Of a stretch of DNA of 37,363 nt, positions 10,974-20,370 are shown in pieces; the first letter of the stretch is position 1; each line of letters starts with the position of its first letter. A model generated the notes under the pieces. It did no database searches. It had not been told where the DNA came from and saw only the letters and a list, made by a program, of their open reading frames with translations. Both the position numbers and the translations under genes were made by a program. The DNA is from Polyangiales bacterium (GTDB lineage: Bacteria; Myxococcota_A; Polyangia; Polyangiales; Ga0077539), in the NCBI GenBank assembly GCA_044376155.1, contig JBILLI010000003.1:1-37363 (forward strand). Direction: 5' to 3'.

Positions 10974-12002
10974 TCAGGCGATGAGCGCGGGGGACTCGCT
11001 CACGGTGTTCTCCCCGCGGGGCACCGGCACGTAGCTCTTCGCGGGGTCGCCGTCGAACCAGCGCACACACACCCGGTCGCGGCCCGCGCGCTTGGCCTCG
11101 TAGAGGGCGTCGTCGGCGAGGGCGAGGCACTGGTCCCGCGTGGGGCGCTGATGCCCCGCGGGGATCACCGCGACGCCGACGCTCACCGTCACCCGGGGCA
11201 CGTCGCCGCCGAGGTCGTGGTCTGACACCGCGCGGCGAAAGCGCTCGCCGATGCGCGCGGCGTTCTCGGGCGTGGCGTGCGACACCGCGAGCAGGAACTC
11301 CTCGCCGCCGTAGCGGGCCACGATGTCTTCGCCGCGGGTGCCCCGGGCGAGCGTCGCCGCCACCTCGCGGATCACCCGGTCGCCCTCGGCGTGGCCGAAG
11401 GTGTCGTTCACGGCCTTGAAGTGATCGATGTCGACCATCATCACCAGCAGCGGTCCGCCCGCGCGGATGAGCCCGTCGAGGCGCTCGTCGGCGGCCCGGC
11501 GGTTCATCAGCTGCGTGAGGGGGTCGAGCATCGCCGCGCGGCGAAAGGTCGCCCGCTGCTGCCGCGCCCAGGCGAGGAGGTAGCGGTCCCGGCGGTTGCG
11601 GATCTGCACGGAGATTCGCGCGCGGAGCTCGTCGAGGCGCCCGTCGGTGAAGACGAAGTCGTCGGCCCCGGCGAGGAGCCCCTGCACCACCGCGTGCTCG
11701 TCGCGGGCGCCGCGGGACAGCAGGATGATCGGCACCTGCCGCGACGCATCGAGGGCCCGGAGCTCCGCGCAGCGGTCGATGCCCTCGGTGCTGGGCGTGC
11801 CCACGTCCAGCAGGATCAGGTCCGGCGGGTCGTTGCACACGAAGGAGAGCAGCCGGGCGTCGCGGGCGTGGATCTCCACGGCGTATCCCTCCGCGGTGAG
11901 CCGCGAGGCCAGGAGGATCACCCTCTCCGGCTCGTTGTCCACGAGGAGCACGCGGGGGGTGTCGATCGGAGACGGAGGGAGGCTGTCGTCGTGGTGCGCC
12001 AT
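10974..12002 (-). CDS. Response regulator-diguanylate cyclase (REC-GGDEF)
   Basis: REC: VLLVDNE and PDLILLD. GGDEF domain: DPLTQLMNRR, DIDHFKAVNDTFGH, I-site RGED and RYGGEEF, ADDALYEAKRAGRD. Start taken at ATG 12002. Confidence 0.93.
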   Translation of the reverse strand: MAHHDDSLPPSPIDTPRVLLVDNEPERVILLASRLTAEGYAVEIHARDARLLSFVCNDPPDLILLDVGTPSTEGIDRCAELRALDASRQVPIILLSRGARDEHAVVQGLLAGADDFVFTDGRLDELRARISVQIRNRRDRYLLAWARQQRATFRRAAMLDPLTQLMNRRAADERLDGLIRAGGPLLVMMVDIDHFKAVNDTFGHAEGDRVIREVAATLARGTRGEDIVARYGGEEFLLAVSHATPENAARIGERFRRAVSDHDLGGDVPRVTVSVGVAVIPAGHQRPTRDQCLALADDALYEAKRAGRDRVCVRWFDGDPAKSYVPVPRGENTVSESPALIA

Positions 12003-12134
12003 GGTGCTGACTGTCGCGAACGGCCACGAAGCGACGGACTTGAACCCGCGACGCGCACGGCGCGTGAGGTGTTCGTTGTCGGCACAGCGCCGTGGGTGCG
12101 CCGCGCGGGACGTGGTACAGCCCTGGGGACCGCC

Positions 12135-12617
12135 ATGGCCCCGCAACGACCCGCCCCGTCGGGCTTCAAGCTCCTGACCGAAAACCGCCGCGCCCTCCAC
12201 CGCTACACCATCGAGGAGCGCCTGGAGGTCGGCGTCGCGCTCATGGGCTCGGAGGTGAAGAGCGCCCGCGCGAACAAGATCGAGCTCGGCGACGCCTACG
12301 GGATCGTGCAGGGCGGCCAGCTCGTGCTGCTCAACGCGTACATCGCCCCGTGGCCCTTCGCGCACATGGTGAAGCACGAGGAGCGTCGCCCCCGCCGCCT
12401 CCTGGCGCACCGCGCGGAGATCGACCGGCTGGAGGGCAAGATCACCCAGCGCGGGTTCACCCTGGTCGCGCTGAAGGCCTACCTCAACGGGGGCAAGATC
12501 AAGATCGAGCTGGGCCTGGGCAAGGGGAAGGAGAACGCCGACCGGCGCGAGGAGATCAAGCGCCGGGAGTCAGACCGCGAGGCGCGCGCCGCCATCGCGC
12601 GAGGGAGCAAGCGGTGA
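12135..12617 (+). CDS. smpB: SsrA-binding protein SmpB
   Basis: ENRRALHRYTIEERLEVGVALMGSEVKS, HEERRPRRLLAHRAEI, KIELGLGKGK and DRREEIKRRE; 160 aa from ATG 12135. Confidence 0.97.
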   Translation: MAPQRPAPSGFKLLTENRRALHRYTIEERLEVGVALMGSEVKSARANKIELGDAYGIVQGGQLVLLNAYIAPWPFAHMVKHEERRPRRLLAHRAEIDRLEGKITQRGFTLVALKAYLNGGKIKIELGLGKGKENADRREEIKRRESDREARAAIARGSKR

Positions 12618-13973: not shown

Positions 13974-14621
13974 ATGATCCTGCGACCGTCTGCGTGGCTG
14001 CCCTCGTTCCTCGACCTCATCGCCCCGCGGCGCTGCGCGGCGTGCGACGCGCCCAACCCCGTCGGTGCGCTGTGCGCGCTCTGCGCCGAGGGCACCGTCG
14101 CCGTCGAAGAGACGCCCGAGGACGTGCGCGCGGTGTTCCTCCACGGCGGCCCCATCGCGGCGGCGATCCACCGCGCGAAGTACCACCCCGACCCCTCGGT
14201 CGCCCGCGCGCTGGGCGTGGAATTGAGGCCCATCGCGGTCCCTGACGGTGCGCTGGTCGTTCCGATCCCCTTGCACCCCAGGCGCTTCGTCGCGCGGGGG
14301 TTCAACCAGTCCGGGGAGCTCGCGCGGGGCTGGCTCGGCGCGGGGCGGGTCTGTCACGGCGTGCTCGCGCGGGCGAGAGACACCCCCACGCAGACCGCGC
14401 TGCACCGCGACGCGCGGCGCGAGAACGTGCGGGGCGCGTTCGTGGTGTGTGCCCCCGCGCGGGTGCAGGGGCGCGCGGTGGTGGTGGTCGACGACGTGGT
14501 CACGACGGGCGCGACGCTCGCCGAGGCCATGGCCTGTGTGCGCGCGGCGGGCGCGGCGACGGTGATGGGGGTCGCGCTGGCCTCGGCCGCGCTGCGGAAC
14601 AAGGCGGTCAGCGGAGGGTGA
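13974..14621 (+). CDS. comF: ComF-family phosphoribosyltransferase with double zinc ribbon
   Basis: CAAC...LCALC, VPIPLH...RGFNQS, RRENVRGAF, VVVDDVVTTGATL. Confidence 0.9.
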   Translation: MILRPSAWLPSFLDLIAPRRCAACDAPNPVGALCALCAEGTVAVEETPEDVRAVFLHGGPIAAAIHRAKYHPDPSVARALGVELRPIAVPDGALVVPIPLHPRRFVARGFNQSGELARGWLGAGRVCHGVLARARDTPTQTALHRDARRENVRGAFVVCAPARVQGRAVVVVDDVVTTGATLAEAMACVRAAGAATVMGVALASAALRNKAVSGG

Positions 14622-15783
14622 GCACGCCCTCGCGCACGAGGCGGCGCACGAGCACGAGGCGGCCGGCGTCATCGAGGCCCGGGAGGTCGGAGATGCGCAG
14701 GGGCTCCCCGCGGAGGCACGCGCGCAGGGCGTCGCGGGCGGCGGCGGGGAAGGTGATCTCGCTGCCGTAGAGCATCAGGGAGACGCCGTCGGCGGTGTCC
14801 TTGAGGCGGAAGAGGAGCGACGGGCGGGTGATCACCTCGCGATCGAGGGTGAGCCCATCGAGCTGGCGGACCTGCTCGATCTGCCCCGGGAGGATCGGGT
14901 GTCGCGTGCCGATGAGCTCCTCGGCGAAGTGGTCCAGGACGTCGTCGAAGGTGGCCTCTTCGGCGAAGCGGCGGAGCAGCGCGCGGAAGCGCTCGCGGGC
15001 CTCGGCGCGGTCGAAGCCCTCGCGGGCGAAGCCCGGGGGCATCCCGTGGCGCATCTCGGTGTCGCGCAGGCCGAAGCGCGCGAGGCTCTCGGCGATGAGG
15101 TCGGTCCACGAGGTGTGCAGCACGCCGAGGGTGATGTGCAGGGAGTCTTCGCCGTCGACGTTGCGCGCGTCGTGCAGCACCCCGCGGGGGATGTACGCGA
15201 GGTCGCCCGGCCCGAGGGTGAAGGTCTGCGTGACCTCACCCACGGGGACCTCGCGGGGGTGGAACTCCTGGCGGCGAAAGGGCAGGGCCACGGGGGTGTC
15301 GTAGAGGGTCCAGAGCTTCTTGCCCTGCACCTGCAGCGCGAACACGTCGTGGGAGTCGTAGTGCGTCTGAAAGCCCTGGGCGTTGCCCGGCGTGCGGTAG
15401 ACGTTGGTCTGAAAGCGCACGCTGAGCTCGGCCTCCATCGCGCGGCAGAGCGCCGCGAGGGGCGCGAGGGCGCCCTCGAGCCCCGCGAAGATCATGGTCG
15501 CGCCCTCGGCGAAATGCTGGGCGGCGCGGGCGTTGTCGATGAGCCCCGAGGCGTAGGTGTAGTCCCCCGGGCCCATCTTGCGGTTGGCGTCGGTGAGGCT
15601 CACCGCGGGGTGCATCGCGTTGCGACCGAAGACGTGGGTGTCGAGGTCGGCGACGGAGAGCAGCTCGGCGTAGCGCGCGGGGTCGCCAGGGTGCAGCACC
15701 AACGGCGCGCGCTCCCAGTGGTCACGAAAGAAGGTGGCGTGCGCGTCGCCCAGGAGGCGCGCGAGGTTCCAGGGGTTCGACAT
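14608..15783 (-). CDS. JmjC/Cupin_4 2-oxoglutarate-Fe(II) oxygenase, ROX (YcfD/NO66/MINA53)-type
   Basis: FFRDHWERAPL, NVYRTP..QGFQTHYDSHDVFALQVQGKKLW (HxD plus 2OG Lys), LGPGDLAYIPRGVLH (distal His), SLHITLG, and a C-terminal winged-helix-like LVRRLVREGVL. Confidence 0.92.
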   Translation of the reverse strand: MSNPWNLARLLGDAHATFFRDHWERAPLVLHPGDPARYAELLSVADLDTHVFGRNAMHPAVSLTDANRKMGPGDYTYASGLIDNARAAQHFAEGATMIFAGLEGALAPLAALCRAMEAELSVRFQTNVYRTPGNAQGFQTHYDSHDVFALQVQGKKLWTLYDTPVALPFRRQEFHPREVPVGEVTQTFTLGPGDLAYIPRGVLHDARNVDGEDSLHITLGVLHTSWTDLIAESLARFGLRDTEMRHGMPPGFAREGFDRAEARERFRALLRRFAEEATFDDVLDHFAEELIGTRHPILPGQIEQVRQLDGLTLDREVITRPSLLFRLKDTADGVSLMLYGSEITFPAAARDALRACLRGEPLRISDLPGLDDAGRLVLVRRLVREGVLTLR

Positions 15784-15829
15784 GGCGGGTGTGGATCTCT
15801 GACGGTGGGGGAGAAGGTGGAGCGCGCGA

Positions 15830-16372
15830 TCAGCGGTGACCGCGGCCGCCGCCGACGGGGTCGGACCAGCTGCCCGAGTCGCCGTCGGTGAGGCCCGTGT
15901 TCATCAGGCGCGCGGTGCCGCGGCCGTTGCCCACGGGGTCAGACCAGCTGCCCGAGTCGCCGTCGGTGGCGCCCGTCGCGCCGCCGCGGCCGAAGTGACC
16001 GCGGCCCTGACCGATGGGGTCAGAGATCTGCCCCGAGTCGCTGTCGGTGAGGCCCGTGTTCATCCCGCGGAGGCCGCCGCGGCCGCCGCCCACCGGGTCG
16101 GCCCACTGGCCACCGTCGCTGTCGGTGGGGCCGGCCTGACCGCCGCCCTGCACGACCATCGCCTGCGGCTGCGCCATGACCTGCGGCTGCGCCACGACCT
16201 GCGGCTGCTGCGTGGTGACGGTGCACCCCGTTAGCACCTGCGAGGCGGCGCCGAGGGTGGTGACGCCGATGACCGCGAGCGCCGTGCGGCGGCTGGGATC
16301 GTCGTCGCGGGTCTTGATCTGAGCGTCGCTGAGCGTCGGCTCGTTGAGGTGGGAGGGGTTTTTCTCAGACAT
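15830..16372 (-). CDS. Putative Tat-exported lipoprotein or precursor with four Asp/Gly-rich repeats
   Basis: AAGGAG RBS. SRRTAL twin-Arg motif, hydrophobic stretch and LTGC lipobox (Cys50), then three QPQxxx repeats and four TD(S/G)D(S/G)GxxxDP(V/I)GxGRG repeats. Confidence 0.85.
   Translation of the reverse strand: MSEKNPSHLNEPTLSDAQIKTRDDDPSRRTALAVIGVTTLGAASQVLTGCTVTTQQPQVVAQPQVMAQPQAMVVQGGGQAGPTDSDGGQWADPVGGGRGGLRGMNTGLTDSDSGQISDPIGQGRGHFGRGGATGATDGDSGSWSDPVGNGRGTARLMNTGLTDGDSGSWSDPVGGGRGHR
15839..16126 (-). repeat. Intragenic tandem repeat, four units with ~78-81 nt period
   Basis: Units start at aa 83, 109, 136 and 162. Units 2 and 4 are both preceded by MNTGL. gaccagctgcccgagtcgccgtcggtg occurs in units 3 and 4. 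Confidence 0.9.
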
Positions 16373-16522
16373 GGTGCGATATCGCTCCTTTGGGGGGAAG
16401 AACGCCGGGCCACACTCCGTGGCCCACGAATGCTACGCGCCGCGTGCACCCGGTCCTTCACCTGCCACGATATCTGAGTTTGTTGTTTCGCGAGAAGGCC
16501 CGTCGAGTACGGTTCTGCTTCG

Positions 16523-17551
16523 TCAGCGTTCGAGGGCCCGCGCGCCGATGGCCTTGCGCACGAAGAGGTCCTCCAGGGTCTCGCGCCGGGGCGTCACGCT
16601 CCCGACGGAGGCGCCGCTCTCCAGCGCTGCCTTCAAGACGTCGGTCACGCCGGCCTCGCCCTGCACCGTCACCAGCACGCGGCCGTTGAGCGAGCCCAGG
16701 GTCACCTGCGGGATCACTTGCAGGCGCGCGCGCAGCGGCTCGCCCACGGCGTCGAGCTCGATCTCCACCGCGCGGATCTCCTTGCGCAGCAGGGTGTCGA
16801 GCGAGCCGTAGGCCGCCATCTCGCCGCGGTTCACGATGGCGAGGCGGTCGCAGAGCATCTCCACGTCGGAGAGGATGTGCGAGCTGAACATCACCGTGCG
16901 GCCGAGGGCGCGCTCTTCGAGGATGAGGTCGCGCACCTCCTTGCGGCCGATGGGGTCGAGCCCCGTCATGGGCTCGTCGAGGATCAAGAGGTCGGGATCG
17001 CCCATGAGCGCCTGCGCGAGGCCGGTGCGCTGGAGCATGCCCTTGGAGAACTTCCGAATGGGCCGGTCCATCACCGACCCGAGGCCCACGCGTCGCAGGA
17101 GCTCCTCGGCGCGTCGGCCCCGCTCGGGCTCGCGCATGCCCACGAGTCGACCCGCGAGGTCCATGATCTCGCGGGCCGAGAGGTACTGGTAGAGGTAGGG
17201 GTTCTCGGGGAGAAAGCCCACGCGTCGGCGCGCGGCGGGGTCGGTGACGGGTCGCCCGAAGAGCTTCACCTCGCCCGCCGACGGGAAGATCAGCCCGAGC
17301 AGGGTCTTGATCGTCGTGGTCTTGCCCGCGCCGTTGGGCCCGAGGAACCCGAAGATCTCTCCCTGTCGCACCTCGAAGGAGATGCCGCGCACGGCCTCGA
17401 CCATCTTGTGCAGCTTCTCGCCCCAGGGGTACTTCGCCGCGGTGCGCTCGAGCCACCCGGGCGGCGCGCCCAGGGCCCGGGGGGTCGTGCGAATGAGCCC
17501 GGTGGAGAACACCTTCACCAGCCCGTTGACCTCGACCACCACCTCGCTCAT
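16523..17551 (-). CDS. ABC transporter ATP-binding protein
   Basis: Walker A GPNGAGKTT, signature FSKGM, Walker B LILDEP, H-loop SSHIL. ATGA-coupled to the upstream aminotransferase. Confidence 0.95.
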   Translation of the reverse strand: MSEVVVEVNGLVKVFSTGLIRTTPRALGAPPGWLERTAAKYPWGEKLHKMVEAVRGISFEVRQGEIFGFLGPNGAGKTTTIKTLLGLIFPSAGEVKLFGRPVTDPAARRRVGFLPENPYLYQYLSAREIMDLAGRLVGMREPERGRRAEELLRRVGLGSVMDRPIRKFSKGMLQRTGLAQALMGDPDLLILDEPMTGLDPIGRKEVRDLILEERALGRTVMFSSHILSDVEMLCDRLAIVNRGEMAAYGSLDTLLRKEIRAVEIELDAVGEPLRARLQVIPQVTLGSLNGRVLVTVQGEAGVTDVLKAALESGASVGSVTPRRETLEDLFVRKAIGARALER

Positions 17552-18663
17552 CGCGCGCCCCCGGCGTGGCGGCGCAGCGCGGCGATCACCGCGTCGGCGT
17601 CGGCCTCGGTCATGCGCGGGTGCAGCGGCGCCGCGACCCCGCCGTCGACCACCGCGTCGGCCACGGGGAAGCTCCGCGCGGCGTTCACCGCGTGGGCCGC
17701 GAAGGCCGGGAGGCGGTGCAGCGCGTAGGAGAGGATCCCCGCTTCGACGCCGTCGGCCCGCAGCGCGGCGATCACCGCGTCACGCCGCGCGCGCAGGCCC
17801 GCGAGGTCCCCCGGCGAAGAATGGGGGATGGTGAATCCCAGGGTCTGGTGGTTCACCACGGCGCCCGCGGGCGCGCGCTGCCAGCGCAGGTCCACGGCCT
17901 CGCGCATGCGCGCCGCGAGCGCGACGCGGCGAGTGAGGATCTCGTCGAGCTTCTCGCACTGCGCCACCCCGACGGCCGCCTGGAGCTCGCTGAGCCGCGC
18001 GTTGGAGCCGGCCTCGACGAAGTCCCCCGGACCGCGGAGTCCGTGGTTGCGGAGCGTGCGCAGCCGGGTCGCGAAGGCCGCGTCGCGGGTGGTGACCATG
18101 CCGCCCTCGCCGGTGGTGATCACCTTGCGCGGGTGGAACGAGAAGGTGCCGAGGTCGCCGAGCACCCCGCACGCCACGCCGTGCAGCGAGGAGCCCAGCG
18201 CGCAGGCGGCGTCTTCGAGCACGGCGACACCAGGGCACGCCGCGCGCACCGCGGGGATGTCGGCGGGCACCCCGAACTGGTCGATGGCGATGACCGCGCG
18301 GGTGCGAGCGGTGCGCAGCGCGGGGAGGCGCGCGGGGTCGAGGTTCCAGGTGTGCGGGTCGATGTCGACGAGCACGGGCACGGCGCCGCGGAGCAGCACC
18401 GCGTGACCGGGAGAGGGCCACGACACCGCGGGCACGATGACCTCGTCGCCCGGGCCCACCCCGAGGGCCGCGAGGGCGAGCTCGAGGGCCACGGTGCCGT
18501 TGCTCACGGCCACGGCCTCGGGCGGAGGGTCACCGAGGCGACGCGCCACGGCGGCCTCGAAGGCGCGCACGCGCTCACCCTGCACGAGCATTCCGGAGTC
18601 GAGGGTCTCGCGCAGGGCGTCGGCCTCGCGCTGGTCGGTGTAGGGCTGCGCCAGTCGGATCAC
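17548..18663 (-). CDS. DegT/DnrJ/EryC1/StrS family PLP-dependent sugar aminotransferase
   Basis: AVSNGTVALEL, GDEVIVP, VLEDAACALGS, FSFHPRKVITTGEGGM (PLP Lys). Start GTG 18663 (VIRLAQP). Confidence 0.93.
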   Translation of the reverse strand: MIRLAQPYTDQREADALRETLDSGMLVQGERVRAFEAAVARRLGDPPPEAVAVSNGTVALELALAALGVGPGDEVIVPAVSWPSPGHAVLLRGAVPVLVDIDPHTWNLDPARLPALRTARTRAVIAIDQFGVPADIPAVRAACPGVAVLEDAACALGSSLHGVACGVLGDLGTFSFHPRKVITTGEGGMVTTRDAAFATRLRTLRNHGLRGPGDFVEAGSNARLSELQAAVGVAQCEKLDEILTRRVALAARMREAVDLRWQRAPAGAVVNHQTLGFTIPHSSPGDLAGLRARRDAVIAALRADGVEAGILSYALHRLPAFAAHAVNAARSFPVADAVVDGGVAAPLHPRMTEADADAVIAALRRHAGGAR

Positions 18664-18699
18664 AGCCGGGCATTGTACGGTAGAAGTGTCCCGCACCGC

Positions 18700-20370
18700 A
18701 TGGCTTCGACGACGCCCGACGCGCCCTCGCTCCGCCCGTACCAACGCGACGCGGTCTCTGCCGTGATCGCCGCGCGGCGGGAGGGTGTACGTCGCATGGT
18801 GGTGTGCCTGCCCACGGGCGCGGGCAAGACCGTGGTCTTCGCGCGCCTCGCGGGCCTCGCGCGGCGGGCGGTGGTGGTCCTCGCCCACCGCGAGGAGCTG
18901 TTGTCGCAGGCGCAGCAGAAGCTCCAGCGGGCGCTGGGCGACGAGGCCGCGGTGAGCGTCGAGCAGGGGTCCCGACGGGCCGACCCGGGCGCGCGGGTGG
19001 TGGTGTGCTCCGTGCGGTCGCTGCGGAGCGATCGCATCGCGCGGCTGCGGCGAGAGCGCGACGTGGGACTGGTGATCTACGACGAGTGCCACCACGCCGC
19101 GGCCGAGGACAACCTCCGGGTGCTGCGCGAGCTCGGCTGCTTCGAGCCCGACTGGGACGGCACCCTCGTGGGCTTCACCGCGACCACCGCCCGGGGCGAC
19201 GGCAAGGGGCTCGACCAGGTCTTCGAGCGCATCGTGTACGCCCGCACGCTGCCCGAGATGATCACCGACGGGTACCTCGCGCCGCTGCGAGGATTTCGCG
19301 TGCAGACCCGCGCCGACCTCACCCGCGTGAGCGCCGCGGGCCAGGACTTCGACGAGGTCGAGCTCGCCGAGGCGGTGGACATCGAGGAGCGCAACGCCCT
19401 CGTGGCGCGCACGATCCAAGAGCTCGCGCGCGACCGCCGGACCATCGCGTTCTGCGTGAACGTCGGGCACGCGCAGAACCTCCGCCGCGCCCTCGGCGCC
19501 CTGGGCGTGCGCGCGGCCACGGTGCACGGCGAAATGCCATCAGAGGCGCGCGCGAAGGTGCTGCGAGACTTCGCCGAGGGGCGGCTGCAGGTGGTGACCA
19601 ACGTGGCGGTGCTCACCGAGGGCTTCGACGACCCCGGGGTGTCGTGCGTGGCCATGGCGCGCCCGACGCGCTCGGCGGGCACGTATGCGCAGTGCGTGGG
19701 CCGGGGCACGCGCCTCGCGGAGGGCAAGCGCGACTGCCTGGTGCTGGATTTCGCGGATGTCTCCGAGCTCTCGCTGTGCTCGCTGCCGTCGCTCTTCGGG
19801 ATGCCCCGGGAGATGGACCTCGAGGGCGAGGACGTGCGCGAGGCGCTGGGGATCTTCGAGCGCATCGCGTTTGACCACCCCGCGTTCGAGGCCGAGGCCG
19901 GGGCCATCACCCTCGGGGAGATCCAGCGGCGCGCGGCGGCGTTTGACCCGCTCACCGCGGAGGTCCACGAGGACGTGCGGGCGATCTCTCGGAACGCGTG
20001 GTCCTCGCTGGGGCGGCACGGGCTGGCGCTGCACTTTGAGGGCGCGCCGGGGCGGGTGCACGAGGCGTTGTTGCGCCCCGTGGCGACGCGGGGCAAGCGC
20101 TGGGCGGTGAGCCTCGATGGCCGCGAGATGGCCCGCTTCTCGACCGTCGACGAGGCCGTCGACGCGGTGGACTTCGAGGTGCAGCGCCGCGGCCCCCACG
20201 CGGCGCGGTCAGCGCGGGCCGAGGCGACGTGGCGGCGCGCGACCTGCCCGACGGCGCGGGCCGAGGCGGTGACGGGGGTGCGACCGGGGCATCCCCCGCC
20301 GCGGAACCTCGGTGAGCTGCTGGCGCTGGAGGCGTGGGCGCTGGTGCTGCGTCCCCCGCGGGCGAAGTAG
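18700..20370 (+). CDS. DEAD/DEAH-box SF2 helicase, Irc3/RadD-like
   Basis: LRPYQ, LPTGAGKT, LAHREEL, DECHH, GFTAT, VLTEGFD, ARPTRS, QCVGRGTR, DCLVLDF. Start ATG 18700. Confidence 0.92.
   Translation: MASTTPDAPSLRPYQRDAVSAVIAARREGVRRMVVCLPTGAGKTVVFARLAGLARRAVVVLAHREELLSQAQQKLQRALGDEAAVSVEQGSRRADPGARVVVCSVRSLRSDRIARLRRERDVGLVIYDECHHAAAEDNLRVLRELGCFEPDWDGTLVGFTATTARGDGKGLDQVFERIVYARTLPEMITDGYLAPLRGFRVQTRADLTRVSAAGQDFDEVELAEAVDIEERNALVARTIQELARDRRTIAFCVNVGHAQNLRRALGALGVRAATVHGEMPSEARAKVLRDFAEGRLQVVTNVAVLTEGFDDPGVSCVAMARPTRSAGTYAQCVGRGTRLAEGKRDCLVLDFADVSELSLCSLPSLFGMPREMDLEGEDVREALGIFERIAFDHPAFEAEAGAITLGEIQRRAAAFDPLTAEVHEDVRAISRNAWSSLGRHGLALHFEGAPGRVHEALLRPVATRGKRWAVSLDGREMARFSTVDEAVDAVDFEVQRRGPHAARSARAEATWRRATCPTARAEAVTGVRPGHPPPRNLGELLALEAWALVLRPPRAK

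Follow-up and report, generated by a model that had tools for sequence, protein, structure and literature searches.

Does a small, putatively exported repeat protein serve as the substrate of the oxygenase encoded beside it? The question is raised by two neighbouring genes in the window, by which we mean the whole 37,363-nucleotide stretch analysed here from a Polyangiales bacterium (GCA_044376155.1, contig JBILLI010000003.1). An earlier note, made from the sequence alone, had described a 180-aa protein with an N-terminal extension, a twin-Arg motif, a lipobox and four Asp-rich cores ending in GRG, lying 46 bp before a co-oriented JmjC gene with an intact HxD...H and Lys. It proposed that the oxygenase hydroxylates the Asp or the Arg of the repeats before Tat export, to give a surface-anchored, metal-binding peptide or a multi-core RiPP. 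What the note observed is confirmed by our analysis in its coordinates and its features, with one correction on the lipobox, whereas its interpretation is supported only in part.

Organization of the locus

The two genes and their parts, all on the minus strand, are the following:

15830-16372 (minus): gene for the 180-aa repeat protein, a signal-bearing precursor, stop codon included, with AAGGAG 13 nt before the ATG
16301-16348 (minus): residues 9-24, LNEPTLSDAQIKTRDD, conserved pre-twin-Arg motif (T/S)LxDx(D/E)I, predicted docking (leader) sequence for the oxygenase
16286-16291 (minus): twin arginine R28-R29 of the Tat-type signal (SRRTAL)
16235-16285 (minus): hydrophobic region of the signal peptide, residues 30-46
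16223-16234 (minus): lipobox LTGC, residues 47-50
16076-16126 (minus): repeat core 1, TDSDGGQWADPVGGGRG, residues 83-99
15998-16048 (minus): repeat core 2, TDSDSGQISDPIGQGRG, residues 109-125
15917-15967 (minus): repeat core 3, TDGDSGSWSDPVGNGRG, residues 136-152
15839-15889 (minus): repeat core 4, TDGDSGSWSDPVGGGRG, residues 162-178
15784-15829 (minus): 46-bp spacer between the two genes, in which no terminator-like site was found
14608-15783 (minus): gene for the 391-aa ROX-type JmjC 2-oxoglutarate oxygenase
15118-15426 (minus): predicted double-stranded beta-helix catalytic core, residues 120-222, with H141 (15361-15363), D143 (15355-15357), K156 (15316-15318) and H204 (15172-15174)
14611-14850 (minus): predicted C-terminal winged-helix domain, residues 312-391, whose predicted leader-binding face is residues 340-385 (14629-14766), carrying the conserved motif DLPGxLDDxGKxVLVRRLVREG

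The repeat protein is not a chance open reading frame, because we found 113 homologues at E <= 1e-3 and 802 cluster representatives at the same threshold among 1.84 billion proteins. RNA-library contigs, about 96% alike and from two runs of one study, cover the whole repeat gene and bridge the spacer into the JmjC gene (X15 record 3 and X17 record 9). R28 and R29 are invariant in an alignment of 15 sequences from two phyla and in another of 51 orthologues, and 109 of the 113 homologues have an RR motif in the first 90 aa, which in the alphaproteobacterial members reads SRRSFL. The D, G and R columns of the cores are invariant in the 51 orthologues, as are G49 and C50 of the lipobox. Yet, the lipobox is conserved only in this orthologue group: other paralogues have AxA-type sites, and 71 of the 113 homologues have a lipobox-like site. 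In the pre-twin-Arg motif, T13, L14, D16 and I19 are invariant in the three paralogues of this genome, and L14 is at least 90% conserved in the 51 orthologues.

The assignment to the Tat pathway rests on motifs, i.e. the invariant twin arginine followed by a hydrophobic stretch and a lipobox or AxA site. Among curated profiles, PF10518 matched only 2 of 15 members, with a best E of 0.071, TIGR02811 matched at E 0.078, below its cut-off, and nothing passed a threshold for the window protein. The genome encodes tatC (169 bits, over the cut-off, contig C1002).

The enzyme matches PF08007 (JmjC_2) at 88.8 bits against a cut-off of 22 (E 2.6e-25). H141, D143, H204 and K156 are invariant in 60 homologues and align with the HYD, H and K of NO66, so that the Fe(II) triad and the 2OG-binding Lys are intact.

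Linkage of the two genes across genomes

The note had named two conditions that would have refuted its proposal and that could be examined computationally, the absence of conserved linkage and the grouping of the enzyme with uL16 hydroxylases, and neither was fulfilled. Regarding linkage, the genome of the window has three JmjC paralogues, and each has a neighbouring repeat gene carrying the same pre-RR motif, RR and repeats. In a sample of 401 Myxococcota genomes, the repeat family is present in 7 and the JmjC clade (E <= 1e-58) in 8. Seven genomes have both, the next-best JmjC hit is only 2.9e-41, and 9 of 11 clade JmjC genes are adjacent to a repeat gene by their coordinates. In an alphaproteobacterial order of 151 genomes (that of genome G414), the repeat family was found in 25 and the JmjC clade (E <= 1.5e-67) in 26. 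Of these, 24 are adjacent and co-oriented by coordinates, and the other two were resolved by reading the loci: genome G429 has a short-repeat variant and genome G480 has two repeat genes directly upstream. Hence, all 26 clade JmjC genes lie directly downstream of 1-6 repeat genes. However, genomes within each order are kin, and in several alphaproteobacterial loci the module sits in one conserved ruvC/ruvA-transketolase neighbourhood, so that the 26 cases represent far fewer independent events.

Adjacency is not universal. We searched genomes through an unlinked repeat paralogue (P0062), and 15 of the 16 genomes found in this way also hold a clade JmjC at E <= 5.7e-72. Of the 16 clade JmjC genes in these genomes, 4 are adjacent to a repeat gene, 11 have none within about 7 kb, and 1 lies at a contig end. 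Within 8 kb on either side of the 16 P0062-type repeat loci, a JmjC gene was found in only 2. Two further JmjC genes (G380:C54 and that of genome G315) also lack a neighbouring repeat gene. Ten of the 13 unlinked genes fall in one clade of 11 rows with 100/100 support, and may thus reflect few separation events; one Sandaracinaceae lineage keeps both genes but unlinked. Co-occurrence has exceptions too, since G315 has the enzyme but no detected repeat gene, and genome G416, a MAG of unknown completeness, has a repeat gene but no enzyme.

The subclades of the enzyme go with subtypes of the partner. The C494, G365_C57 and G285 enzymes all pair with a Cys-containing type (AEA followed by CRRRTGRTD), and the enzymes of the window and of genome G120 pair with the 4-unit lipoprotein type. 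No third gene is conserved beside the pair in Myxococcota or Alphaproteobacteria, be it a protease, a transporter or another tailoring gene.

Predicted structure of the enzyme and of the complex

The AlphaFold2 model of the enzyme (pLDDT 94.3) has a full three-domain ROX architecture, with a JmjC core, a helical dimerisation domain and a C-terminal winged helix. It matches NO66 over all three domains (Foldseek E 2e-30, TM 0.74, 24% identity, about 440 columns aligned to the full-length protein). The enzyme is nearest NO66 and MINA53 and is not an orthologue of E. coli RoxA/YcfD. Solved YcfD structures match at only E 2e-4 to 7e-4, against 4e-25 for NO66, and with a Foldseek TM of only 0.49-0.56, against 0.74 for NO66, RoxA matches the window gene at E 2.5e-4, and in the tree RoxA is joined by a very long branch (3.6 plus 3.6 changes per site).

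In contrast, the repeat protein alone is predicted to be disordered (pLDDT 42.8), with a single helix at residues 26-40, and therefore resembles a peptide substrate. Prediction of the complex gave ipSAE values of 0.69, 0.70 and 0.68, against 0.00 for the best of three controls. This mark was reached by 58 of 80 solved complexes and by 2 of 110 mismatched pairs, counts that hold only roughly because we used our own alignments. The runs agree in at least 25% of contacts, and the pLDDT of the partner is 34-36. The confident interface joins JmjC residues 340-385 with partner residues 9-24, so that the N-terminal extension pointed out in the note is the part predicted to dock on the enzyme. The short motif lies against a beta-strand (341-346) and a helix (372-384) of a beta-beta-beta-alpha-alpha winged-helix domain. 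The motif DLPGxLDDxGKxVLVRRLVREG of the docking helix is conserved in the Myxococcota clade, whose partners carry TLxDxDI, and differs in the alphaproteobacterial clade, whose partners lack TLxDxDI, although this covariation rests on two clades only. No confident contact between any repeat unit and the active site was returned.

Interpretation

Our results suggest, with moderate confidence, that the two genes form an enzyme-substrate module. In this view, the small gene encodes an intrinsically disordered precursor made of the docking motif, a Tat signal peptide with a lipobox, a Q/P-rich linker and four 17-residue units, TDxDxGxxxDPxGxGRG. In the cytoplasm, the oxygenase would bind the docking motif with its winged-helix domain, much as an RRE binds a RiPP leader, and would oxidise, most likely hydroxylate, one conserved residue in each unit. 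Because the docking site abuts the RR motif, release of the finished product would free the signal for Tat export, and signal peptidase II would then remove signal and leader together, leaving a lipid-anchored, modified repeat protein outside the cytoplasm. Unlinked paralogues carry the same docking motif and would be served in trans. The linkage, the co-occurrence, the ROX fold, the intact active site, the conserved motifs and the docking, the last as a prediction, come out of our analyses, and support the view that the pair is a conserved functional unit. Catalysis on the repeats, the target residue, the order of events, the use of Tat and the function of the product, including any binding of metal, are inferred. 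The note's suggestion of a multi-core RiPP, in the sense of one cut into peptides, finds no support in the genes conserved beside the pair. As for the target, we favour C-3 of the invariant Arg of GxGR, albeit with somewhat less than even confidence, over one of the three Asp, which we consider unlikely, because precedents in the family concern Arg, His and Orn/Lys.

The best surviving alternative, though an unlikely one, keeps the module but adopts the Asp chemistry of the note, in which beta-hydroxylation of one or more of the three invariant Asp of each unit would give hydroxy-Asp metal ligands in an exported metal-binding protein. These Asp are invariant in long and short repeat variants, the D-x-D-x(n)-D spacing looks like that of calcium-binding loops, and the enzyme has a sub-threshold match to Cupin_8 (E 3.8e-5), the family of FIH-type enzymes. 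Yet, no PF08007 enzyme that we found in the literature acts on Asp, the known targets being Arg (YcfD), His (NO66, MINA53) and Orn/Lys (PhaI, BipG), FIH is a distant structural match (TM 0.33-0.35), and no Pfam calcium-binding family matched the repeats.

It is less likely still that the oxygenase is an ordinary hydroxylase of a ribosomal or other protein, and the repeat protein a regulator or merely a co-inherited neighbour. Annotation pipelines do call the homologues 'ribosomal protein L16 Arg81 hydroxylase' or 'cupin domain-containing protein', and half of the Myxococcota-side enzyme genes are unlinked. Moreover, the genome, which is 87% complete, holds no closer RoxA homologue, the best hits of RoxA being these same three paralogues (4e-9 to 2.5e-4), so that a ribosomal substrate is not excluded by the presence of another candidate enzyme. 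However, a housekeeping ribosome modifier would not be expected in only 8 of 401 Myxococcota genomes that are almost exactly those with the repeat family. The same co-distribution in a second phylum, the three separate pairs in one genome, the co-diversification of subtypes, the predicted docking of the conserved leader and the distance to RoxA also speak against it. Finally, a different activity, such as an oxidative cross-link or macrocyclisation within each unit (a 2OG-dioxygenase-catalysed macrocyclisation in RiPPs is reportedly described, ref. 45 of PMC12710340) or a role mainly as a signal-peptide-binding export chaperone, might be suggested by the Cys bracketing each unit or the conserved Tyr/Trp of many family members and by the docking site abutting the RR motif, but is improbable because the aromatic residue and the Cys are absent from short repeat variants still paired with the enzyme and because the invariant Fe/2OG site argues against a purely chaperone role.

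Relation to described systems

Our literature searches found no description of this gene pair, in agreement with the note, but several of its ingredients are already in print. The ribosomal oxygenases NO66, MINA53 and YcfD/RoxA share its PF08007 core, its HxD...H plus Lys and its three-domain architecture. The enzyme described here differs from them in being genomically tied to a putatively secreted repeat protein and not to ribosomal genes, in its patchy distribution, and in a winged-helix domain predicted to hold a substrate leader, a role not known to have been assigned to the ROX winged helix. PF08007 enzymes also hydroxylate ribosomally made precursor peptides on a basic side chain, PhaI giving gamma-hydroxy-Orn in the phaeornamide pathway (PMC8784127) and BipG acting on Orn in that of biphenomycin (PMC12707348). 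These enzymes sit in multi-enzyme clusters (arginase, lanthionine synthetase, MNIO, rSAM) with NHLP or short precursors. The module studied here has two genes, with a precursor that carries a putative Tat signal and, across the family, 3 to more than 25 tandem units.

The predicted binding mode resembles that of RRE-dependent RiPP biosynthesis, and RRE-like folds fused to PF08007, with bacterial homologues in RiPP-like contexts, have been noted (PMC12710340). Here, the putative leader lies in the n-region of an export signal peptide, where its removal with the signal is inferred, the product would be a protein of about 130 aa rather than a small peptide, and no dedicated leader protease or transporter is present beside the pair. 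By analogy, bufferins are signal-peptide-bearing RiPP metallophores whose precursors combine an export signal with cytoplasmic modification, using Sec signals, MNIO enzymes and Cys chemistry. Tat proofreading chaperones (REMPs such as TorD) are non-catalytic cytoplasmic proteins that bind the Tat signal region before export and serve cofactor enzymes.

A bolder reading, which we hold only tentatively, is that binding of the winged-helix domain to the n-region of the Tat signal masks the twin-arginine motif until every repeat unit is hydroxylated, a catalytic proofreading step coupling post-translational modification to export. It would yield a new class of exported, hydroxylated repeat (lipo)proteins in Polyangiales and marine or freshwater Alphaproteobacteria, possibly metal- or calcium-binding, as well as the first non-ribosomal substrate class for bacterial ROX enzymes and a function for the ROX winged helix.

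Bacterial ROX/JmjC oxygenases are known for the hydroxylation of ribosomal proteins and, recently, as tailoring enzymes in a few RiPP clusters. To these, our results add a compact two-gene module that recurs in two phyla, with a candidate substrate family that has hundreds of 50%-identity clusters and no Pfam or NCBIfam model, and a predicted recognition mechanism in which the winged-helix domain binds a defined 16-residue motif. They point to an unusual link between modification and export, with cytoplasmic oxidation inferred to be tied to Tat export of a disordered protein, and explain why many 'L16 Arg81 hydroxylase' annotations in Polyangiales and Caulobacterales-like genomes are probably wrong.

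The repeat gene and the oxygenase gene

The window is 70-78% G+C, and the homologues of its genes carry names that place the organism in Polyangiales/Sandaracinaceae (Myxococcota). Genomes, contigs and loci are designated below by G, C and L numbers, G000 being the genome of the window. The two genes of interest, their main parts and the two neighboring genes are as follows.

15830-16372, minus strand: repeat gene, encoding 180 aa, with an ATG start 13 nt after AAGGAG
residues 9-24 of the repeat protein: pre-signal stretch LNEPTLSDAQIKTRDD
residues 28-29: twin arginine of the SRRTAL motif, followed by a hydrophobic stretch
residues 47-50: lipobox LTGC, followed by a Q/P-rich linker
residues 83-99, 109-125, 136-152 and 162-178: four 17-residue units
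14608-15783, minus strand: oxygenase gene, encoding 391 aa, starting 46 bp downstream of the repeat gene on the same strand
13974-14621, plus strand: ComF-like phosphoribosyltransferase gene (TIGR00201 at E 1.3e-22, below its cut-off)
16523-17551, minus strand: DrrA-type ABC ATPase gene

The earlier note had described the signal-bearing protein with four Asp-rich cores and the co-oriented JmjC gene with an intact HxD...H and Lys, and this description is accurate. A promoter and terminator scan of positions 14300-16800 found nothing, and in particular no terminator-like site between the two genes. The 3' ends of the oxygenase gene and of the convergent ComF-like gene overlap by 14 bp (14608-14621). 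The ORFs at 10974-12410 (minus), 16523-17551 (minus), 17548-19527 (minus) and 17566-20370 (plus) are, from their translations, ordinary neighbours, including a response-regulator/GGDEF-like protein (containing GGEEF), the ABC ATPase, a long ORF whose C-terminal part looks like a sugar aminotransferase, and a long ORF whose C-terminal part looks like a helicase. Many overlapping ORFs in this region are high-GC artefacts.

Contigs from two RNA-library runs of one study, about 96% alike, lie on this stretch. One covers 15529-16460 and the other 15726-16418, so that together they span the whole repeat gene, the spacer and the start of the oxygenase gene. This is only a hint of expression. Contigs cannot prove a single transcript, and DNA carry-over is possible. 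Two other RNA runs (X16 and X19) gave only short or partly fitting pieces, and the parts of the stretch without cover carry no meaning. The habitat labels of the DNA runs (lake or fresh water) are not used as evidence here.

A sizeable family of repeat proteins

The repeat protein has no match in Pfam or NCBIfam, and a search of a protein atlas gave only unnamed clusters at scores of 0.86 or lower, plus a 31% TAT_signal cluster at 0.83, which is no more than a lead. Yet the family is real and sizeable. We found 113 homologues at E <= 1e-3 in the 90% clusters, and a profile of 15 diverse members found 802 representatives of 50% clusters at E <= 1e-3, and 440 at E <= 1e-10, among 1.84 billion proteins. 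All are small, and are named in the sources only as 'hypothetical protein' or 'Tat pathway signal protein'.

The unit is (G)(I/L/V)TDxDxGx(Y/W)(A/S)DPxGxGRG. Shorter variants exist, TDSDPSDPVGRGRG and TD(S/N)DS(T/S)DRxGQGRN, and the common core is therefore D-x-D-x(2-6)-D-x-x-G-x-G-R. Copy number ranges from 2 to more than 25. The extreme short-unit variants come from two alphaproteobacterial genomes. One (L092:5607-6785, genome G480) is a 392-aa protein with more than 25 units of about 13 residues (TDSDS(S/T)DTxGHGRTG), whose signal has KRSFL in place of RRSFL, and the other (L091:4500-5336, genome G429) has about 14 units of TD(S/N)DS(T/S)DRxGQGRN. The profile search missed the G429 protein and matched only the smaller of the two repeat genes of G480, weakly (E 9.3e-6). 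In many family members each unit is bracketed by Cys (C-x18-19-C), as at L025:6010-6441, L088:5975-6670 and L062:2649-3869, which suggests disulfide-closed loops after export, but the window protein has no such Cys.

R28 and R29 are invariant across two phyla, 109 of the 113 homologues have an RR motif in the first 90 residues, and alphaproteobacterial members read SRRSFL. In the 51 orthologues of the window protein the lipobox G49-C50 is invariant, whereas other paralogue groups have AxA-type sites instead. Curated Tat profiles do not reach significance (PF10518 matched 2 of 15 members, at E 0.071), and Tat use is thus inferred from motifs and from the presence of tatC in the genome. Alone, the protein is predicted by AF2 to be disordered apart from the signal helix (pLDDT 42.8). 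Tat is reported to carry small, unstructured, hydrophilic proteins (Richter et al. 2007, cited in PMC13186574).

A ROX-fold enzyme that is not a RoxA orthologue

The oxygenase matches PF08007 JmjC_2 at 88.8 bits, against a cut-off of 22. H141, D143, H204 and K156 are invariant in 60 homologues and align with the HYD, H and K of NO66. The AF2 model has a pLDDT of 94.3 and a pTM of 0.89, and a Foldseek search with it matched NO66 first (E 2e-30, TM 0.74, 24% identity, about 440 aligned columns), then MINA53, then YcfD (TM 0.49-0.56), with FIH far behind (TM about 0.35). By sequence, NO66 scores 4e-25 and solved YcfD only 2e-4 to 7e-4. In a tree of 31 rows, E. coli RoxA joins by a very long branch, and the best hits of RoxA in the genome of the window are the three paralogues described below, at 4e-9 to 2.5e-4. 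The enzyme thus has a predicted ROX fold without being a RoxA orthologue. Annotation pipelines nevertheless label homologues 'ribosomal protein L16 Arg81 hydroxylase'.

Linkage in Myxococcota

The genome of the window has three JmjC paralogues, each with a repeat gene beside it that carries the same pre-RR motif. The repeat gene is directly upstream and co-oriented in the window and on contig C494, and divergent, 757 bp away, on contig C1004. The pair on C494 lies downstream of a small gene whose product looks DsrE/TusD-like and of another with a possibly TusA/DsrC-like C-terminus (L005:856-1335 and 40-849), and these genes are not seen beside the other pairs.

In an even sample of 401 Myxococcota genomes, the repeat family is in 7, all in the order of the window, and the JmjC clade (E <= 1e-58) is in 8. 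Seven genomes have both, and G315 has the enzyme only. By coordinates, 9 of the 11 clade JmjC genes are adjacent to a repeat gene, and that of genome G285 is flanked on both sides. The remaining two, on contig C54 of genome G380 and in G315, have none within about 6 kb. At L032:7625-8596 (contig C54 of G380), the unlinked JmjC gene lies directly downstream of a gene whose product begins ...FFEGPEKKVEL... and looks like an S-adenosylmethionine decarboxylase proenzyme. Reading the frames around the JmjC gene of G315 (L030; C150:3763-4947) found no partner, and this is the one clade JmjC without any detected repeat gene in its genome. Its winged-helix helix has diverged (…DLPDEAKLEFVEGLVRAG…) at the positions predicted to hold the leader, although this is a single case. 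Genomes G355 and G380 hold further orphan repeat genes, which share no common neighbour.

We also looked for a conserved third gene and found none. The ComF-like phosphoribosyltransferase and ABC ATPase genes that neighbour the pair in the window are not found beside the other pairs.

Other results cut against simple adjacency. A scan with the repeat paralogue P0062 found 16 loci in named MAGs, only 2 of which have a JmjC gene within 8 kb. Yet 15 of the 16 genomes hold a clade JmjC elsewhere, at E <= 5.7e-72, a count that includes the unpublished genome G411. Of those 16 JmjC genes, 4 are adjacent to another repeat gene (on contig C17 of G413, in G409, in the Oceanicaulis genome G414 and in the Sphingomonadales genome G415), 11 have none within about 7 kb, and 1 lies at a contig end. 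In the tree, 10 of the 13 unlinked genes fall in one clade of 11 rows with 100/100 support. The loss of adjacency is thus concentrated in one Sandaracinaceae lineage, in which both partners persist and the orphan repeat proteins keep the predicted docking motif.

Recurrence in Alphaproteobacteria

The order of the Oceanicaulis MAG provided an independent test in another phylum. Among 151 of its genomes, the repeat profile hits 25 and the JmjC clade (E <= 1.5e-67, the next hit being 8.6e-40) is in 26, and all 25 repeat-bearing genomes are among the 26. By coordinates, the JmjC gene lies directly downstream of, and co-oriented with, one to six tandem repeat genes in 24. Reading the last two loci resolved them: G429 has a Tat-signal protein with a short repeat variant directly upstream and G480 has two repeat genes directly upstream, which makes 26 of 26. 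These genomes are kin, and several share the same ruvC/ruvA-transketolase neighbourhood, which we read as lineage synteny and not as function. The count therefore overstates the number of independent events, and the recurrence across phyla is the stronger point. Several members of the tandem arrays (loci L084-L090, genomes G421, G461, G551, G560, G521, G490 and G505) carry one in-frame stop (TAA, TAG or TGA) in the match, and may be decaying copies or mis-assemblies.

Co-diversification and predicted contact

Enzyme subclades go with partner subtypes. The enzymes of C494, of contig C57 of genome G365 and of G285 pair with Cys-containing AEA|CRRRTGRTD-type partners. The enzymes of the window and of genome G120, and the unresolved branch of contig C19 of G365, pair with 4-unit lipoproteins. 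The enzymes of locus L002 and of genomes G355 and G059, whose branches are not resolved into one clade, pair with SDSDSGPNAD-type partners.

A complex prediction run with our own alignments (A3 and A4) gave ipSAE values of 0.69, 0.70 and 0.68, whereas the best of three controls was 0.00. The mark was reached by 58 of 80 solved complexes and 2 of 110 mismatched pairs, although these counts hold only roughly here, the runs agree in at least 25% of contacts, and partner pLDDT is 34-36. The confident predicted interface joins partner residues 9-24 to enzyme residues 340-385, which are strand 341-346 and helices 347-356 and 372-384 of the winged-helix domain. That helix carries DLPGxLDDxGKxVLVRRLVREG, which is among the best-conserved stretches outside the catalytic core. 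It differs in the alphaproteobacterial clade, whose partners have a short K-x-x-L-S-RRSFL n-region and lack TLxDxDI. No repeat unit was placed confidently in the active site, and we draw no conclusion from this about the target residue.

Relation to described systems

The enzyme family and leader-guided peptide hydroxylation are known. PF08007 enzymes hydroxylate Orn/Lys in RiPP precursors, as PhaI (PMC8784127) and BipG (PMC12707348) do, and a JmjC-type enzyme hydroxylates Phe in curacozole (PMC11575548). RRE-like folds fused to PF08007 have been reported, with the remark that bacterial homologues sit in RiPP-like contexts (PMC12710340). Our literature searches found no description of a Tat-signal repeat precursor paired with a ROX enzyme, although the supplements of the related PF08007 and RRE papers may hold gene-neighbourhood lists that include this module. 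We found no description of the substrate family, of the two-gene module and its distribution, of the placement of the recognition motif in the n-region of a Tat signal, or of the predicted role of the ROX winged helix.

Interpretation

Our results suggest an enzyme-substrate module as the most economical reading, which we consider somewhat more likely than not. The linkage of the genes, their co-occurrence, the conserved motifs and the intact active site rest directly on the analysis, as do, at the level of models, the ROX fold and the docking of the partner, whereas catalysis on the repeats, the target residue, the order of events, Tat export and any function of the product (metal or calcium binding, protease resistance or surface chemistry) are inferred. 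The interpretation in the earlier note, that the oxygenase may hydroxylate the repeat Asp or the GRG Arg before Tat export to give a surface-anchored, modified metal-binding peptide or a multi-core RiPP, is partly supported. Family precedent (Arg, His, Orn/Lys) and the invariant GxGR favor hydroxylation of Arg, but the beta-hydroxy-Asp of that note remains possible. In our view, a ROX-type oxygenase would use its winged-helix domain as a leader-recognition element and would oxidize each unit of a disordered precursor in the cytoplasm. The precursor would then be exported by Tat, with removal of its signal plus leader, and in the orthologue group of the window it would also be lipid-anchored.
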